Assembly: GCA_030645735.1 (NCBI GenBank) | Contig: JAUSNP010000006.1 | Location: 260,824-324,823 of the forward strand | From: Candidatus Moraniibacteriota bacterium | GTDB taxonomy: Bacteria; Patescibacteriota; Minisyncoccia; Moranbacterales; UBA2206 | Direction of reading: 5' to 3' | DNA: 64,000 bases | Shown here: positions 3,601 to 57,091 of the stretch, in pieces | Position numbering within the stretch: position 1 is the stretch's first letter | How the letters are laid out: each line of letters begins with the position of its first letter | The notes under the pieces: model-generated | What the model saw: only the letters and a program-made list of their open reading frames with translations | What the model was told of the DNA's origin: nothing | The model's database searches: none | Position numbers and translations under genes: made by a program

Positions 3601-5040
3601 TTAAAAATTCTTTCTTTTTCCAAACAAAACTCCAATTGTTTTGAGACATATCTGCACATCCAGCCACAACGACCAGTTTTCAATATAATATAAATCCAAT
3701 TTATACTCGTCTTCAAAATCCAAATCTGAACGACCAGAAACTTGCGCCATACCTGTCACGCCAGGTTTAATAGTCAACAATCTTCTGTGGTAATCCATAT
3801 ATTTTTCCACTTCTCGATGTTGGTGCGGACGTGGTCCCACCAAGCTCATCGAGCCAAACAAAACATTGAAAAATTGTGGCAATTCATCAATCGATAATTT
3901 TTCAATAAAACCACCAACCCTAGTTTTACGAGGATCTTTTTTGATTTTATACAATGGCCCCTTTCGAACACTTTGCGTTTCAATCAAATCTTTTTCCAAT
4001 TCCAAAGCTTCGTTCACTTTCGGGTTTTCACGAGTCACGCAACAATCCCATTTCATATAGCGGAATTTGTACACAAAAAAGCTTGCGCCATCGTTGCCCA
4101 CTCTTTCATTTTTATAAATAATTGGGCCCTTGCTATCAATCCAAATTGCCAGAGCTGTTAGAATCATAATCGGCGAAGTCAAAACAATTCCAATTACAGA
4201 AGCGACAATATCAAAAGTTCTCTTCAAAATCTTACCCCAACCATCCAGAGGCGTGTGCTTCACTTCAATCAATGGCTCGCCATTTAGGACACCAACTTCA
4301 TATTTAGAAGTCTGCAGGGTGGTCGGCATATATTTATATGTGATATTATTGAGCGCGCAATAATCGATTAATTTTGCCTGATCATCATCCGTCACTGATG
4401 GTTCACATAAAATTATTTCGTCGATCCCTTTTTCTTGGCGAATTATTTTAATCACTTTCAAATGCGCCGTTTCAATCTGATCGATAATGCGATAACCTAG
4501 ATTCTTATTCTGTTTGATTAGTTTGGCCATCGTATCCATCTTGCCATTGCGACCAATAAGCAAAACGCGATGCACGCCAATACCTCTACTCTTCAAAAGC
4601 CATTGTTGAAAAAGTTTCAAAATATATCTTCCCAGAATCACATAAGCCACTGCCATGAGCCAGGCAGCTAGAATTATAAAGCGCGAAGAAAACCATTCTC
4701 GTTTCAGGAATATCAAAATAATAATAATGACCAAACCAATGGAAGTGGCGCTGAAAATCTTCGCAGCTTCTTTCCAAAATTTTCTCGTCACGCGAATATC
4801 ATACAGCCCTTCGACGGCATAAATCAAAATAAAAAACGGCGCCGTAGCCAGAGCTATTTTTATATATTCATTTAAATATACACCATTGAGCGTCAATGAC
4901 TTTAATTGAAAATAATCCAAAACCATTGGCAATTCACGCACAGCAAAAGCACTGACCGCAGCCAGTACTATCATCAGAAAATCAATTGGAACTTGCAGAC
5001 CGCTAAAGAATAATTCGGATCGTTTCATAGTAAAACTCAC
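3601..5040 (-). CDS. Undecaprenyl-phosphate sugar phosphotransferase (WbaP/WcaJ-type priming transferase)
   Basis: 479 aa. N-terminal transmembrane segments plus the C-terminal bacterial sugar-transferase domain (RPMSLVGPRPHQ..., GVTGMAQVSGRSDL). Confidence 0.85.
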   Translation of the reverse strand: MSFTMKRSELFFSGLQVPIDFLMIVLAAVSAFAVRELPMVLDYFQLKSLTLNGVYLNEYIKIALATAPFFILIYAVEGLYDIRVTRKFWKEAAKIFSATSIGLVIIIILIFLKREWFSSRFIILAAWLMAVAYVILGRYILKLFQQWLLKSRGIGVHRVLLIGRNGKMDTMAKLIKQNKNLGYRIIDQIETAHLKVIKIIRQEKGIDEIILCEPSVTDDDQAKLIDYCALNNITYKYMPTTLQTSKYEVGVLNGEPLIEVKHTPLDGWGKILKRTFDIVASVIGIVLTSPIMILTALAIWIDSKGPIIYKNERVGNDGASFFVYKFRYMKWDCCVTRENPKVNEALELEKDLIETQSVRKGPLYKIKKDPRKTRVGGFIEKLSIDELPQFFNVLFGSMSLVGPRPHQHREVEKYMDYHRRLLTIKPGVTGMAQVSGRSDLDFEDEYKLDLYYIENWSLWLDVQICLKTIGVLFGKRKNF

Positions 5041-5131: not shown

Positions 5132-5548
5132 GGATTTTCAAGGCAAATCTATAAGCCGGATTTTGTTGAAAGAAATCATTTATCTAGGCCAAACATTGCT
5201 GATTGGCTCTTGCAGTACCCGCCAATACGAAACACTATAAACTTCATCGAAACACTATCATGAAATTCACAATGCTTCGCATTGGCGTACGACCTTGCAT
5301 CTAGGTAAGGATTTAGCCGTTTCACTCCTCGACTTCACTCAGAGCAAGCCCTAAGTTTATTTCGAAGACTATTCCGCTTTTATACGGAATCTGCAATCCT
5401 TTCGAATTACAGCGTCTCTGCTCGCACCTCGTAGGTTACCCTAGACGGGTATTACCCGCTACCGATCCATTGCAAAGCAATGGTTGATGTCCGGACTTTC
5501 CTCCTCGACTTTGACGTCGAGGCGATTTCTCAATTTACCTTGAAAATT
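5132..5548 (-). ncRNA. rnpB: RNase P RNA, bacterial type
   Basis: Minus-strand reading contains the P4 5' strand GAGGAAAGTCCGGAC, the element GGCCTAGATAAATGATT (E. coli: GGCCUAGAUGAAUGACU), and the P4 3' strand ACAAAATCCGGCTTATAG. A P1 helix pairs tttcaaggtaaat with atttgccttgaaa at the two ends. Confidence 0.8.
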
Positions 5549-45837: not shown

Positions 45838-45969
45838 AATTCTTTATTATCTTTTTATAATTCAATTATATCACATCCTACGCCATATTTTTTTGTGCCT
45901 CACAAAAACATTTATCCACCTCACTTTCTTATACGCAAAAACGCTCACAATGAGCGTTTTATATATTAG

Positions 45970-46040
45970 CACGGGTGGAAGGAGTCGAACCCTCACCAAA
46001 GGTTTTGGAGACCTCCGTTCTACCGCTAAACTACACCCGC
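45970..46040 (-). tRNA. tRNA-Trp (anticodon CCA)
   Basis: Cloverleaf: acceptor GCGGGTG/CACCCGT, anticodon loop CTCCAAA, T-loop TTCGACT, discriminator G. Confidence 0.75.
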
Positions 46041-46167
46041 CCGCCTCATTTGCCAATGAAATGAAAAATACCTACTCTCCGATTTTCATTAAGCTATAAA
46101 AATCATATTCGTAAAAATAATCTCACTAGCAAATGTGGCGGGCACGCCCAAATGGACATACCAAAGA

Positions 46168-46332
46168 TTATTTCGCTTCTTTGTGCACTGTGTGAACCTT
46201 GCATTTCTTGCAATGTTTTTTCATTTCCAACTTTTCTTTCAACATCTTCTTGTTACGAGTTGTGAAATAGTTAGTTGATTTGCAGACTTCGCATTTCATC
46301 TTCGCTAGATTGTCGTTGCCTTTTTTTGCCAT
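46168..46332 (-). CDS. rpmG: 50S ribosomal protein L33
   Basis: MAKKGNDNLAKMKCEVCKSTNYFTTRNKK...KKHCKKCKVHTVHKEAK (54 aa from the ATG at 46332). The listed ORF is over-extended at its 5' end. Confidence 0.85.
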   Translation of the reverse strand: MAKKGNDNLAKMKCEVCKSTNYFTTRNKKMLKEKLEMKKHCKKCKVHTVHKEAK

Positions 46333-46428
46333 AATATTTTCGTGGAACGTGGAACGTGGAACGTAAATCATTGATAGGATATACGTTTCGCGTTATGCGT
46401 TTTGCGTTATATGATTTACAAATTATTA

Positions 46429-46501
46429 ATTTCGCTTGAGCCGTTGAGCAGAATCGAACTGCTGACCTCATCCCTACCAAGGATGTGCTCTACCAACTGA
46501 G
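46429..46501 (-). tRNA. tRNA-Thr (anticodon GGT)
   Basis: GCCGTTGTAGCTCAGTTGGTAGAGCACATCCTTGGTAGGGATGAGG...TTCGATTCTGCTCAACGGCT. Confidence 0.8.
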
Positions 46502-46626
46502 CTACAACGGCAACTTCATTACAATAACCAAATTCCAAGATACAAACATCAAACAAATTTCAAAATTCAACATGGATATTTTTTGGAATTTGTTATTTGT
46601 TTTTTTGGTTTTTGTCACGAAGTGAC

Positions 46627-46712
46627 TGGTGGGCAGAGAGGGAGTCGAACCCCCGTAGACCGAAGTCGACAGATTTACAGTCTGTTGTAATTGACCACTC
46701 TACCATCTGCCC
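46627..46712 (-). tRNA. tRNA-Tyr (anticodon GTA), long variable arm, CCA encoded
   Basis: GGGCAGATGGTAGAGTGGTCAATTACAACAGACTGTAAATCTGT...GGGGGTTCGACTCCCTCTCTGCCCACCA. Confidence 0.8.
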
Positions 46713-46728
46713 ATTTTCAACAACCCAG

Positions 46729-46800
46729 AGCCGCCTTTCGGATTCGAACCGAAAACCTACTGTTTACAAAACAGTTGCTCTACCGTTGAGCTAAGGCGGC
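46729..46800 (-). tRNA. tRNA-Thr (anticodon TGT)
   Basis: GCCGCCTTAGCTCAACGGTAGAGCAACTGTTTTGTAAACAGTAGGTTTTCGGTTCGAATCCGAAAGGCGGCT. Confidence 0.75.
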
Positions 46801-50574: not shown

Positions 50575-50820
50575 TCCGCAAGGGTGAGTTTTTTGATTAC
50601 ACGTCATTTTTATTTCATAAAAATTACGGTTTGTCCATTTTCTTTGGCAGCAAAGAAAGTGGACGAAAAGAAACTGCTGCCCAGACTCGTGCTGTCTAAA
50701 TTTCTAGCGTACTCGCTAAAATTCCAATAAGAACGCTAAAAGGAAAACTAGTATGTAATTTCTTAACGCTCGTGCGCTGAAATTTAGAAACGCACTTCGT
50801 TATGGGCGAAAGTTTTTTTT
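50575..50820 (-). repeat. Dispersed ~250-bp intergenic repeat, copy B, inverted relative to copy A
   Basis: The reverse complement aligns at about 75% to 55290-55550 (GTGCGTTTCTAAATT...GAGCGTTAAGAAATT...AATTTTAGYGAG...TTTAGACAGCAC...CTTTGCTGCCAAAGAAAATGGAC). It includes a terminal terminator hairpin. Confidence 0.6.
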
Positions 50821-54363: not shown

Positions 54364-55272
54364 ATGCAAATCGAAACTATTGGTGACCTGCAAAAAGAAT
54401 ACTTTGGCAAAATCGATCATCTCGATTTGGATTTGATTGTGGCGCATTCAATCAAAAAAACTCGGGAATTCGTGATGTCACATCCCGAACACAAGCCCAC
54501 AGGCGCCCAATTGGCCAAAATCAAGACATTTGCCCAGCGAAGGGCCAAACACGAGCCCTTGGCCTATATTTTGGGTCACAAAGAGTTCTTCGGCCTGAAT
54601 TTCAAAGTTTCGCCGGATACCCTGATTCCCCGACCGGAAACGGAGTTGCTCGTTGAACTCGCAATGCAAAACGTGGAACGTGAAACACAAAACGCAAAAT
54701 CGTTACACGATATGCGTTACACGATATGTGACATCGGCACTGGCAGTGGGAATATAATAATCTCAGTTGCAAAAACAATGACCATTGACCGATTACCGAT
54801 GATCAACTTTTTTGCTATCGACATTTCCAAAGAGGCTTTGAAGATTGCCAAACAAAATGCCAAGATCAACGCAATTTCTGACAAAATAAAATTTATCCAT
54901 GGAAATCTATTAGATCCAATTATAAAAAATCCTACCAACTACCAACTACCAACTACCAACTTAGTTATTCTGGCTAATCTTCCCTACCTCTCTCAAGAGA
55001 TTTATTCCGCCACCCTGCCCAATGTCAAAAAGTTTGAACCCAAGTCCGCCCTCTGGAGCGCCAAAGAAGGTTTGGATCATTATGAAAAATTATTACAACA
55101 AATTGCAGAGCTAAAATCGTGTTATATATTTCATGTTTCATGTTTCATGGAAATTAGCCCCGAACAAAAAACCAAACTTCCCAAAATTATCAAAAAGCAT
55201 CTTCCTCAAGCAAAAACACAATTCCACAAAGACTTAGCTGGCAAGTGGAGAGTTTGTGCAATTAAAGTTTAA
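54364..55272 (+). CDS. prmC: Release factor glutamine N5-methyltransferase (HemK)
   Basis: LAYILGHKEFFGLNFKV, RPETE, DIGTGSGNI, and NLPY in place of NPPY. It contains a 7-bp x4 tandem repeat at 54932-54959. Confidence 0.75.
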   Translation: MQIETIGDLQKEYFGKIDHLDLDLIVAHSIKKTREFVMSHPEHKPTGAQLAKIKTFAQRRAKHEPLAYILGHKEFFGLNFKVSPDTLIPRPETELLVELAMQNVERETQNAKSLHDMRYTICDIGTGSGNIIISVAKTMTIDRLPMINFFAIDISKEALKIAKQNAKINAISDKIKFIHGNLLDPIIKNPTNYQLPTTNLVILANLPYLSQEIYSATLPNVKKFEPKSALWSAKEGLDHYEKLLQQIAELKSCYIFHVSCFMEISPEQKTKLPKIIKKHLPQAKTQFHKDLAGKWRVCAIKV

Positions 55273-55289
55273 AATTTAAAAAAATAAAT

Positions 55290-55575
55290 CCGCGCCTTGG
55301 CGTTAGTGCGTTTCTAAATTCCAGATTGTGAGCGTTAAGAAATTTTTCGCTGCTCCTCTTAGCGGAAAGTCGTCCCTAAAATTTTAGTGAGCAATCTGAG
55401 AATTTAGACAGCACAAGCCGGCGCCGGCGGTTTCTTTTTGCCACTTTCTTTGCCGCCAAAGAAAATGGCGAACTGTTTTCTTTGCTGCCAAAGAAAATGG
55501 ACACTCTGTTCTTTTGCTGCCAAAAGAAAGTTAGAGCTGAAAATCAAAAACCCGCATGTTAGCGGGTTTTTGATA
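55290..55575 (+). repeat. Dispersed ~250-bp intergenic repeat, copy A
   Basis: Conserved 5' block CCGCGCCTTGGCGTTAGTGCGTTTCTAAATT. Three tandem hairpins with CNGC loops (TTTCTTTGCCGCCAAAGAAA, TTTTCTTTGCTGCCAAAGAAAA, TTCTTTTGCTGCCAAAAGAAAG). A terminal terminator AAAAACCCGCATGTTAGCGGGTTTTT. Confidence 0.6.
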
Positions 55576-55671
55576 TGCTTTTAAGTTAATCATTCAGGAA
55601 CACTTATTCTGCCGGTACCAGCAAGATACTTGTTCTAGTAGATTAGTTAAAAGTTGATAGTTTATCTAAGA

Positions 55672-55827
55672 CTATTTCTTTTTCTTTTTTGCTACAACTT
55701 TCTTTTTAGCTACTTTCTTTACTGCCTTTTTAGCTACTTTTTTTACAGCTTTTTTTGCAACTTTTTTTACTGCCTTTTTTACAGCTTTTTTTGCAACTTT
55801 TTTTACTGCTTTCTTTTTTGCTGCCAT
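55672..55827 (-). CDS. Lys/Ala-rich histone H1-like 'KKAV' repeat DNA-binding protein (51 aa); not in the supplied ORF track
   Basis: Manual minus-strand translation from the ATG at 55825-55827: MAAKKKAVKKVAKKAVKKAVKKVAKKAVKKVAKKAVKKVAKKKVVAKKKKK, ending at TAG. Shine-Dalgarno AAGGAAGGTGA lies 8 nt upstream. Confidence 0.6.
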   Translation of the reverse strand: MAAKKKAVKKVAKKAVKKAVKKVAKKAVKKVAKKAVKKVAKKKVVAKKKKK

Positions 55828-56224
55828 GTGGGTTTCACCTTCCTTTCTATTTTTAGTTTTATTTTTATACTTTTTTGTTTCGACCTTTTTATTTCGTCAG
55901 GAATATTTTTTAAAATTAAAAAATATTTCTCAACTACATAAATTATATAACATTTAAATTTATTTGCAATAGCAAAAAGTTATCCACAGGGCAAATTTTT
56001 TAACTTTCATTTTTTATTTTCTATTTTAAAAAATAATTTATTTTGCTTTTTGAAAAACATTGGGTGATTCTAAGTTAAAAGTTAAAAAATTAAAATTACA
56101 AAATCCAAATCACAAATCACAAACAAATCACAAATCTCAAAATTTTAAATAAAATCTAAATTTAAAAATTTAAAAAAACTTTCCGCGCCTTGCGTAGTGC
56201 GTTTCTAAATTTAATTGTCATCCC

Positions 56225-56320
56225 AGGCTTGACCTGGGATCTTCCTTACAATTCATCCAATAAATTAAATTTCGCGATTACAGTGAGTAGATTCCGGCTC
56301 AAGGCCGGAATGACAGACTT
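56225..56320. mobile_element. MITE-like element, copy 2 (inverse orientation), adjacent to a partial copy of the 250-bp repeat
   Basis: TGTCATCCCAGGCTTGACCTGGGAT ... ATTCCGGCTCAAGGCCGGAATGACA. The reverse complement aligns to 14846-14950. It is preceded by CCGCGCCTTGCGTAGTGCGTTTCTAAATTT at 56185-56225. Confidence 0.6.
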
Positions 56321-56383
56321 AAAAACATTTTAATAGAGAAAGTTAGCCCCGATATTATGCCCAAAATGCCATTTTTTGTCTAG

Positions 56384-56412
56384 TTGACGCACTGCTCAGA
56401 TGCGTTTAGAAT
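56384..56412 (+). promoter_or_regulatory. Sigma70-like promoter candidate
   Basis: TTGACG, 17-nt spacer, TAGAAT, about 100 nt upstream of the ATG at 56513. Confidence 0.4.
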
Positions 56413-56512
56413 TTATAGACAGAGACAATTTGGTCGGAACTACCCTAAAAAGGTAGATAAGCTTCAACGAAAGCCCCTTAACAATTAATATAGAAAGGAA
56501 GGTGAAACAAAC

Positions 56513-57091
56513 ATGGAAGAAGAAATCAAAACTGAAGAAGAAATGGATCAAGAAATTTCAACCAAGCAATGGCTTCAAGACAACCTTCGCATCATCATTA
56601 GCATCCTAATCGTGGTTGCTATCGCTGGCGGAATCTATTCATACTCAAACCGAGGAGAAGATTCAGCTAAGAATGATCAGGAAGTTGCTCAACAAGAAGA
56701 ATCAACTGGCGATAATTCAGAAGTTACCATAGACAAAATTTCTGAAACTACCCCAGCAGCTAAAACTGAAACTGTTGCATCTAGCCAAGAAACTGAAAAA
56801 TCTTTTATTGAAAAGGCTGGAAAGGGAGATGGCTCAACCGTTCTTGCTCGCAGAGCTCTAGCTAATTTTCTAGAAAAGAACCAAGACTCAGCCCTAACAG
56901 CAGAACACAAAATCTATATTGAGGACTATCTGCGCAAGAATGTTTCCCACAAAGGAAGCGTGCACATTGGAACTTCGATAGAATTCTCTAAAGACCTAAT
57001 TCAAGATGCGATTGCAAAATCGAAGAATCTGAACGAAAAACAATTACAGAATTTGCACAAGTATGCCGTTAGAGTTCCCTCTCTAGCATAG
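56513..57091 (+). CDS. Hypothetical membrane-anchored protein (192 aa)
   Basis: Acidic N-terminus, one transmembrane helix. Its ribosome-binding context ATAGAAAGGAAGGTGAAAC is nearly identical to that of the KKAV gene. Confidence 0.5.
   Translation: MEEEIKTEEEMDQEISTKQWLQDNLRIIISILIVVAIAGGIYSYSNRGEDSAKNDQEVAQQEESTGDNSEVTIDKISETTPAAKTETVASSQETEKSFIEKAGKGDGSTVLARRALANFLEKNQDSALTAEHKIYIEDYLRKNVSHKGSVHIGTSIEFSKDLIQDAIAKSKNLNEKQLQNLHKYAVRVPSLA

Follow-up and report, generated by a model that had tools for sequence, protein, structure and literature searches.

A conserved 51-residue Lys/Ala/Val repeat peptide gene with a DnaA box at its promoter in Candidatus Moraniibacteriota: a candidate nucleic-acid counter-ion of the Candidate Phyla Radiation

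Lysine-rich nucleoid proteins and the KKAV peptide

The C-terminal tail of histone H1 is a polycation that binds DNA irrespective of sequence, neutralises its charge and condenses it, and formation of a helix on binding has been reported. A peptide of comparable composition is encoded in a 64,000-nucleotide stretch of DNA from Candidatus Moraniibacteriota bacterium (GenBank assembly GCA_030645735.1, contig JAUSNP010000006.1, positions 260,824 to 324,823; this whole stretch is the window, and positions are counted from its first nucleotide unless another locus is named), on the minus strand at 55672..55827. The product, MAAKKKAVKKVAKKAVKKAVKKVAKKAVKKVAKKAVKKVAKKKVVAKKKKK, is referred to here as the KKAV peptide. 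It consists of 27 Lys, 12 Ala, 11 Val and 1 Met (53% K, 24% A, 22% Val), contains no Pro, Ser or Thr, and has a net charge of +27 and a mass of 5.55 kDa. Its likeness to the H1/H5 C-tail (Lys/Ala-rich, very basic, low-complexity) is one of composition only and not demonstrable homology: H1 combines a winged-helix domain with a tail of ~100 residues that contains Pro, Ser and Thr, whereas the KKAV peptide is 51 residues long and keeps a strict (A/V)KK(A/V) period. Because all 51 residues are repeat, no globular domain is possible, and the H1/H5 winged-helix profile PF00538 gave no Pfam match at E≤10.

Hc1 and Hc2 resemble the KKAV peptide as small or medium-sized, Lys/Ala-rich bacterial nucleoid-condensing proteins. 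Their expression is developmental, and we know of no link between either of them and a DnaA box. Hc1 has a conserved non-repeat N-terminal region, which the KKAV peptide is without; Hc2 is built from Lys-rich pentamer repeats and is 165-237 aa long, compared with a four-residue period and 51 aa here. The length of Hc2 varies by repeat number (PMC2848022). The Hc1 profile PF07432 was not matched in Pfam or NCBIfam at E≤10, and Pfam gave no match to the Hc2 profile PF07382 in a search that is weakened by the composition filters of HMMER.

AlgP (AlgR3) and PhaF share with the KKAV peptide a bacterial 'histone H1-like' Lys/Ala repeat with a four-residue period. Tails of the KPAA type bind DNA, polyphosphate or polyhydroxyalkanoate (PHA) granules (PMC9239181), and the one on PhaF also binds specific mRNAs and acts as an activator of translation (PMC12818456). 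In AlgP and PhaF the repeat, whose units each hold one Lys and one Pro, is predicted to be disordered and follows a folded N-terminal domain of >100 aa (PMC9239181); the units of the KKAV peptide hold two Lys and no Pro, and the peptide is all repeat and predicted to be helical. Polycationic tails of the same kind occur in mycobacterial HupB and Ku (PAKKA tails), in Streptomyces TopA, DdbA and HupS, and in BpH-type proteins of Bordetella, and Lys/Ala-repeat tails raise nucleic-acid affinity or processivity (PMC3553676, PMC5714199, PMC3643593). Those tails are appendages of folded proteins, whereas in the KKAV peptide the tail is the whole protein, provided with its own promoter, DnaA box and terminator.

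An earlier reading of this DNA, made from the sequence only, had called such repeats characteristic of H1 C-tails and of bacterial Hc1 and AlgP-type nucleoid proteins. The resemblance in composition to H1 C-tails and bacterial 'H1-like' proteins stands, which makes a polycation for nucleic acids the natural interpretation; membership of any of these families does not, as the proposed profile search against Hc1, H1 and AlgP returned no match in Pfam or NCBIfam even at E≤10. By its sequence the KKAV peptide lies outside the H1, Hc1, Hc2 and AlgP families, and by analogy it plausibly works like an H1 C-tail, an AlgP/PhaF tail or an Hc2-type polycation. New in comparison with these systems are the stand-alone, minimal, helix-prone form across the Candidate Phyla Radiation (CPR), the phased perfect DnaA box, and the linkages to secA and to SET-domain genes. 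Within the limited coverage of the literature searched, no description of such peptides, of the box phasing or of a secA or SET linkage was found.

A conserved gene and its family

The minus strand of positions 55300-56700 was read and its open reading frames (ORFs) were listed. The 51-aa, ATG-started ORF at 55672..55827 was recovered with exactly the sequence that had been quoted for it. In the window it is convergent with prfA-prmC (prmC: MDO8241266.1, 54364-55272) and is followed on the other side by hyp192 (MDO8241268.1, 56513-57091), a divergent gene for a membrane-anchored hypothetical protein of 192 aa.

In a related strain (L001; other loci are numbered likewise), whose neighbouring proteins are 84-90% identical to those of the window, the KKAV ORF (156 nt) shows 2 differences, both synonymous, and the 165 nt 5' of the ATG, comprising promoter and leader, are 100% identical. 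This identity starts exactly at the DnaA box, and the remaining intergenic DNA is rearranged. By using tblastn with the window neighbours, the order of prfA (RF1) and prmC, KKAV on the opposite strand and hyp192 was found in at least 10 further species-level genomes (L018, L020, L024, L025, L027, L040, L047, L052, L072, L073), and this synteny spans genomes of 35-58% G+C. Differences between orthologues at codon positions 1/2/3 amount to 59/80/478 in 25 pairwise comparisons (478/617 at third positions), and the same 25 pairs show 412 synonymous versus 100 non-synonymous codon changes. The window (38% G+C) and L018 (55% G+C) are separated by 32 synonymous and 0 non-synonymous changes, and the ungapped pair L020/L040 has 16/17 differences at third positions. 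L002 and L003 offer a second genomic setting, with the gene placed between RNase P RNA and secA and with flanks that do not align to those of the window; here the comparison of L002 with the window gave 24 synonymous and 2 non-synonymous codon differences. The ATG, the Shine-Dalgarno sequence, the promoter and the terminator are kept among the orthologues. Judged by these comparisons the KKAV gene is real and its peptide is under purifying selection; the proposal of a genuine minus-strand gene with its own promoter, Shine-Dalgarno sequence and terminator is thus borne out, with mainly synonymous change across genomes.

The opposite view, that the locus is no gene and merely an A/T-rich simple repeat open on both strands by chance, can point to the periodicity of the tract (12/24/36 nt, each divisible by three), to the open antisense frame and to the absence of any database profile match. 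We regard it as scarcely credible, and it was rejected, because the concentration of orthologue differences at third positions, the conserved gene signals and the synteny across genomes of widely different G+C content all contradict a non-coding simple repeat, which the sequence-only reading had named as the finding that would speak against its gene. The plus-strand ORF of 95 aa (55654..55941 (+); Phe/Leu/Tyr/Cys-rich), which shares its codon register with the KKAV coding sequence (CDS), had been dismissed as an artefact, rightly so by the present data: since K/A/V codons yield no antisense stops, the antisense frame is open in 66/66 family genes (among the matches listed; see below), and its product is not conserved because variation at sense third positions falls on antisense first positions.

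The family was delimited by scanning a degenerate DNA pattern for the 14-residue module KKAVKKVAKKAVKK over one genome per GTDB species. At least 119 species-representative genomes encode the module. Stand-alone candidates of ≤75 aa number 66 among the matches listed, to which all counts of stand-alone genes, their taxa, boxes, leaders and terminators in this text likewise refer; ~60 stand-alone peptides of 23-70 aa are left after removal of 4 likely C-terminal tails (L068, L069, L087, L108). Members are defined here as peptides of 23-75 aa that start with M-[AP]-[AVM]-K-K, consist of K/A/V/T/P/R to ≥90% and contain KKAVKKVAKKAVKK; the window peptide belongs to this stand-alone (A/V)KK(A/V) family together with 65 others. 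A typical member starts with MA[AV]KKK and ends in KKK, AKRA or AKRK. The stand-alone genes are concentrated in the CPR (Moranbacteria, Paceibacterota, Nomurabacteria, Saccharibacteria, Wolfebacteria, Falkowbacteria); longer forms of the peptide occur in Gracilibacteria and Peribacteria, and scattered stand-alone cases in Elusimicrobia, Alphaproteobacteria, Acidobacteria and one Woesearchaeota archaeon. A terminator-like hairpin with T-run lies ≤140 nt downstream in 58/66 loci, including 31/31 CPR-labelled ones, and the window terminator at +97 fits this monocistronic architecture.

Some labels deserve comment. Loci L004, L009, L027, L073, L101 and L102 carry the labels Fimivivens, Gammaproteobacteria, Bdellovibrionales and Bacteroidetes and are syntenic with, or nearly identical in architecture to, CPR loci; these contigs are probably mis-binned or mislabelled. 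The archaeal case (L121, complement of 3955-4146, from a Woesearchaeota (DPANN) metagenome-assembled genome) encodes a stand-alone peptide of 63 aa and shows no DnaA box or bacterial-type terminator.

Elsewhere the module is part of larger proteins. It is fused to SWIB, sigma-70 RpoD, Rho, the N-terminus of IF-2, a BlaI-type repressor and adenylate kinase, the last a partner with no nucleic-acid link, and it also occurs on a DksA/TraR zinc finger that scores below the Pfam cut-off. Long 'H1-like' proteins of the Bordetella and Xanthomonadales type contain it as well (Bordetella-type, 125 aa: L060, L105). Such tail fusions were seen in L007, L029, L034, L043, L050, L059, L071 and L077 (Proteobacteria, Verrucomicrobia, Planctomycetes, Acidobacteria).

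Conventional searches recover little of this. The KKAV peptide gave chance-level matches or none in Pfam, NCBIfam, PHROGs and the PDB; the homologous-protein search returned a single marginal match, pointing to locus L002, and an exhaustive phmmer search 5 weak matches, mostly to unrelated low-complexity sequences. In the related-locus search tblastn confirmed 0 of 600 pattern matches, presumably owing to the low-complexity composition. The family rests on motif, architecture and synteny, as HMMER and BLAST cannot establish homology at such composition. Composition filters make profile and BLAST searches miss the gene, ORF-length-based annotation favours the antisense ORF over it, and tryptic proteomics is blind to the peptide, which is cut into pieces of 1-4 residues. 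A degenerate DNA pattern followed by checks of codon position and architecture is a usable recipe for such genes. As for the earlier statement that the gene is unannotated, exact look-ups of the KKAV peptide, six homologues and four rival ORFs gave no match. Against that statement, the exact ORF was called by a gene caller on the related Logan contig (L001 3713-3868), and the accession numbering leaves exactly one number between MDO8241266.1 and MDO8241268.1, so the public GenBank record probably holds a CDS between prmC and hyp192.

The promoter DnaA box and the proposed role

A perfect DnaA-box 9-mer, TTATCCACA, lies at 55980..55988 (+), 10 nt 5' of the -35 element of a sigma-70-type promoter (TTGCAA-16 nt-TATAAT, 55969-55942 (-); 10/12 matches in a consensus scan). 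It reads TGTGGATAA on the gene strand, and the extended motif around it is AAAAAGTTATCCACA. No other perfect match to TTATCCACA occurs in the 64-kb window. Among the matches listed, a perfect box is found ≤250 nt from the ATG in 31/66 and ≤350 nt in 37/66 stand-alone genes; elsewhere in the same loci there are 4 in ~445 kb, which gives a density ratio of ~180-fold. In a de novo 9-mer count, TGTGGATAA, AGTTATCCA and GTGGATAAC ranked first (37, 36 and 36 loci, versus 4, 1 and 1 elsewhere), TGTGGATAA being the top 9-mer that is not of low complexity, and the count gave AAAAGTTATCCACA as the extended box motif of the family.

The geometry is conserved too. Coding-strand boxes are found in Paceibacterota, Saccharibacteria, Nomurabacteria and Wolfebacteria; they lie 17-20 nt upstream of the -35 element in 24 loci and 27 nt upstream, one helical turn more, in 4. 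In the window and Moranbacteria group A (6 loci) the box is inverted and its distance from the -35 element is read as 10 nt; a spacing scan returned this value for 4 of the 6 loci and, for L040 and L072, which have the same layout, a different match at 5 nt. The arrangement of box, -35 and -10 in the window is common to Moranbacteria group A. Sorted by taxon label, 25/31 CPR, 7/13 unlabelled and 5/22 non-CPR loci carry the box, and 3 of the 5 box-bearing loci with a non-CPR label look CPR-like by synteny. Reverse-oriented perfect boxes were also seen ≤350 nt upstream in L015 and L086 (Aestuariivirga, Alphaproteobacteria), with no recognisable phased promoter.

On this evidence the box is a candidate for a promoter element that depends on DnaA. 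There are precedents for transcriptional control by DnaA (PMC4447404), one of them at a nucleoid-protein operon of Borrelia (PMC9879097). The likeness to DnaA-regulated promoters (dnaA autoregulation, Borrelia dnaX-ebfC, the B. subtilis DnaA regulon) consists in a consensus TTATCCACA that adjoins a sigma-70 promoter; the KKAV genes differ in having one perfect box with fixed phasing, in several CPR classes, at one tiny gene. No description of DnaA boxes in CPR, or of a phased box at such genes, was found in the literature searched. The promoter box and the breadth of the peptide family, both absent from the sequence-only reading, are the most informative features of the locus. An origin of replication at the KKAV locus was considered and rejected: there is a single box, and the GC skew is negative over the whole window and never changes sign.

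The reading that we somewhat favour is that the KKAV peptide is an abundant counter-ion for nucleic acids, chiefly chromosomal DNA, which acts without sequence preference and whose gene is controlled by DnaA. The free peptide would be unfolded and would fold into one long helix upon neutralisation of its charges; a single-sequence AlphaFold model shows one helix over residues 3-50 (pLDDT (predicted local distance difference test) 86). As the period is 4 and not 3.6 residues, the Lys pairs, which follow every ~6 Å along the modelled helix, spiral round its axis and precess by ~40 degrees per four-residue repeat. By virtue of this spiral one peptide could reach phosphates on more than one duplex, and it would thereby bridge or condense DNA in the manner of the H1 C-tail. 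The model describes a rod charged all round (mean hydrophobicity -0.40; whole-peptide hydrophobic moment 0.07), which would suit lining or bridging phosphate backbones rather than insertion into membranes. Since the box is conserved, phased and next to the promoter, DnaA is suggested to set transcription of the gene; acting at this high-affinity site, it would tie the supply of peptide to replication status. The earlier proposal of a dedicated nucleoid-compaction protein in a reduced genome is a step that we infer, and binding to RNA or ribosomes is its live rival.

The neighbours of the gene in relatives bear on this choice. In at least 30 non-Moranbacteria CPR loci the next gene downstream is a co-oriented secA, ~85-200 nt away; these loci include L002, L011, L013, L016, L017, L021, L032, L035-L037, L056, L062, L066, L074, L080, L089, L093, L094, L097, L100, L102, L103, L106, L107, L113 and L114. 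Going by this recurrence, the KKAV-secA linkage is ancient and CPR-wide. The gap holds a terminator and an apparent extended -10 (TGnTAAAAT) ~8 nt before the secA ATG, as judged by eye. The position upstream of secA in Bacillus subtilis is held by the gene for a ribosome hibernation factor, hpf/yvyD. No secA is present in the 64-kb window, which has prmC, the oppositely directed KKAV gene and hyp192 in the order of other Moranbacteria-type loci. In several lineages the KKAV gene adjoins rnpB or the 3' end of 16S rRNA. In nine Paceibacterota loci the KKAV gene is immediately preceded by a co-oriented gene for a SET-domain (PF00856) lysine methyltransferase (L017, 3810-4388; L058, 4088-4645(-); L064, L079, L097, L099, L100, L103, L113); this neighbour is not present in the window. 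It is notable to find a lysine methyltransferase paired with a protein that is 50% lysine. Known SET substrates include chlamydial Hc1, which the enzymes bind and methylate, and MC1-alpha, which is methylated by an archaeal SET enzyme (PMC3980110). The methylation of Hc1 parallels the SET-KKAV gene pair of Paceibacterota, and the two neighbours may be a writer and its substrate, by analogy with chlamydial cpnSET and Hc1.

Several points weigh against a DnaA-controlled chromosomal counter-ion. Transcription and translation of the KKAV gene and DNA binding by its product are predictions from sequence; A/K-rich peptides are trivially predicted to be helical, and the AlphaFold model comes from one sequence. 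The box is absent in Moranbacteria group B, with its promoter TTGACA-17-TATAAT, and in Falkowbacteria-like loci, and a single DnaA box could be a titration site, not a regulator. Part of the (A/V)KK(A/V) family could be convergent. The neighbours are linked to translation or secretion (prfA and prmC here; secA, rRNA and rnpB elsewhere) and suit a role in RNA binding or at the ribosome no less well. A peptide that is mainly an RNA- or ribosome-associated polycation, be it a stand-alone counterpart of the Ala/Lys-rich extensions of ribosomal proteins or a hibernation or translation-modulating factor, is in our estimate unlikely, and the secA, prfA-prmC and 16S rRNA or RNase P RNA neighbourhoods, the mRNA-binding, translation-activating KPAA tail of PhaF (PMC12818456) and the Ala/Lys-rich C-terminal extension of Parcubacteria uS19 (PMC9297842) keep it alive, as does the presence of the module on IF-2 and Rho. 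The DnaA box at the promoter, the adjacency of a SET methyltransferase with its chromatin-protein precedents, and the fusions to SWIB, sigma-70, a BlaI-type repressor and, weakly, DksA argue for the chromosomal role instead, although they are compatible with dual binding of DNA and RNA.

If the peptide itself were functionless, the ORF might be a regulatory upstream ORF whose Lys- and A-rich message slows ribosomes and tunes read-through into the downstream gene, which is secA in most CPR. The tight, ancient linkage across gaps of ~85-200 nt would suit this, as would the runs of 6-8 A inside the CDS of the window and the example of E. coli, where secA is controlled by the upstream ORF secM. 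Such a mechanism is nevertheless very unlikely, given that the gene is convergent with prmC in the window and in all Moranbacteria-type loci and that 64 kb hold no secA; a strong terminator follows the ORF in 58/66 loci, and secA seems, by eye only, to have its own extended -10. Moreover, the amino acids are kept while AAA/AAG usage shifts freely with G+C content (32 synonymous versus 0 non-synonymous changes between the window and L018), and the same module tails many proteins. That an episymbiotic CPR cell releases the peptide as a cationic amphipathic agent, antimicrobial or directed at the host, is less probable still: the peptide is short, strongly cationic and predicted to be helical, and its local hydrophobic moment over 18 residues (0.61) is like that of known antimicrobial peptides, whereas the moment of the whole peptide falls to 0.07 because the Lys stripe spirals round the helix. 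Its mean hydrophobicity of -0.40 compares with 0.0-0.2 for magainin, melittin and MAP, it lacks a signal peptide as well as Leu, Ile, Phe and Trp, and no transporter or immunity gene was found in the window neighbourhood; the association with the DnaA box and the occurrence of the module on cytoplasmic proteins likewise speak against release.

Much of bacterial diversity belongs to the CPR, whose cells and genomes are very small and whose DNA packaging and regulation are, to our knowledge, essentially unstudied. In the KKAV gene they have a conserved gene that is apparently built for high expression and tied to the binding site of the replication initiator. It is a tentative proposal, possible rather than probable in our view, that the CPR share an undescribed minimal chromatin protein: a proline-free, helix-forming (A/V)KK(A/V) polycation of 3-7 kDa in a conserved DnaA regulon, so that DNA-condensing capacity would track replication, with modification by a SET enzyme in some lineages. 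If true, the smallest known cells would contain a bacterial 'writer plus histone-tail' pair, and the peptide could underlie the tightly packed DNA that Luef et al. in 2015 are said to have seen in ultra-small cells. Should the peptide be the main counter-ion of DNA, it would offer a minimal model of H1-tail-like condensation, its gene would be a first candidate member of a DnaA regulon in CPR, and, together with the SET neighbour, it would allow lysine methylation to be tested on a bacterial chromatin protein.

Leader, terminator and other features of the window

To judge from its signals the KKAV locus is probably a self-contained and strongly expressed transcription unit of ~395 nt, made up, in this order, of the DnaA box, the sigma-70 promoter, the A-rich leader with its strong Shine-Dalgarno sequence, the 51-codon ORF and the intrinsic terminator. 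Transcription would start near 55935. The A-rich 5' leader (55828..55935 (-), ~108 nt; 100% identical in L001) contains an A/U hairpin near its 5' end (55899-55930 (-)) and a small GAC/GUC hairpin with a AAAUAAAAA loop (55882-55898 (-)). The text 5' of the start codon reads ...ATAGAAAGGAAGGTGAAACCCAC-ATG, in which the layout just before the CDS is ATAGAAAGGAAGGTGAAAC-CCAC-ATG. The strong Shine-Dalgarno sequence that had been described is AGGTGA (55840-55835 (-)), the core of which ends 7 nt from the ATG. The 3' untranslated region (55536..55671 (-)) ends in an intrinsic terminator, a hairpin followed by a U-run. The hairpin (55543-55574 (-)), with its 13-bp G+C-centred stem and A-/U-run flanks, lies 97 nt past the stop, close to the ~100 nt that had been given for it; it folds at -22.2 kcal/mol (z = -5.1 versus shuffles, minus strand), is wholly kept in L001 and, being symmetric, could also end prmC transcripts that arrive from the opposite side.

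The ribosome-binding context had been noted to recur upstream of the gene at 56513. The 19-mer ATAGAAAGGAAGGTGAAAC indeed occurs exactly twice in the 64 kb, as an inverted pair before two divergent starts: at 55832-55850(-) and at 56490..56508 (+), the ribosome-binding region of hyp192 (56513-57091); the chance expectation for such a recurrence is 0.07 even with 3 mismatches allowed. All hyp192 orthologues carry cTAGAAAGGAAGGTGA, while the KKAV orthologues carry GAAAGGAGGTG, and hyp192-type sequence stands before KKAV only in the window and L001. As all hyp192 orthologues have cTAGAAAGGAAGGTGA, the 19-mer is taken from these comparisons to be ancestral at hyp192, and the one at KKAV to be a lineage-specific copy of a strong ribosome-binding region. 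The KKAV gene of the window looks like a mosaic of a group A DnaA-box promoter, a group-B-like leader start (a hairpin plus CGAAATAAAAA) and the hyp192 19-mer. The idea that the inverted 19-mers are the ends of an invertible segment was set aside on the comparison with relatives: the sequence is ancestral at hyp192, and the DnaA-box promoter has the same orientation as in relatives.

Leaders of the Moranbacteria type (11/11) start with a hairpin, which varies in sequence from lineage to lineage, and continue with CGAAATAAAAA. In 29 forward-box loci the leader contains GGTCG (or GGTCA/AGTCG) and then an ATCAYCAC-like arm, which can pair with an upstream GTGRTGAT, and GATC sites are often present (for example L002 4225-4317, L058 and L074). 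The GGTCG element could be a regulatory RNA or DNA element. Stems beside the GGUCG motif averaged 6.7 bp versus 5.9 bp at control anchors, which is not significant in a naive test; RNAalifold found no consensus structure in six Moranbacteria leaders, whose hairpin arms MAFFT could not align; the fold of the window leader was no better than those of shuffles (z -0.5 to -1.4); and Rfam gave no family at gathering score for the window and 18 related loci, with chance-level matches only at E≤10. Conserved sequence features, not a structured RNA, are therefore what is claimed for the leaders.

The DNA around the peptide cassette is repetitive. A direct repeat of ~60 nt (78-100% identical; 55260-55320 and 56153-56211) brackets the cassette and includes the exact 17-mer TAGTGCGTTTCTAAATT; a third, partial copy lies 4.5 kb away at 50781-50797. 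Either a repeat dispersed among intergenic regions or the scar of a recombination event may be the explanation. Three tandem units of 32 nt (55445-55540), each with a TTCTTTGSYGCCAAAGAA-type hairpin, lie between the stop of prmC and the terminator in the window and are also present in L001. A segment of ~150 nt at ~56190-56340 with two G+C-rich hairpins, TCATTCCGGCCTTGAGCCGGAATC and ATCCCAGGTCAAGCCTGGGAT, is not present in L001 and looks like a small insertion, similar to a miniature inverted-repeat transposable element, in the divergent intergenic region. Tandem heptamers (CAAATCA / TGATTTG) occur in A/T-rich DNA between the divergent promoters (56101-56141). Farther away, the window contains an RNase P RNA gene (class A) and four tRNA genes (Trp, Thr, Tyr, Thr) at 5136-5541(-) and 45969-46800(-).

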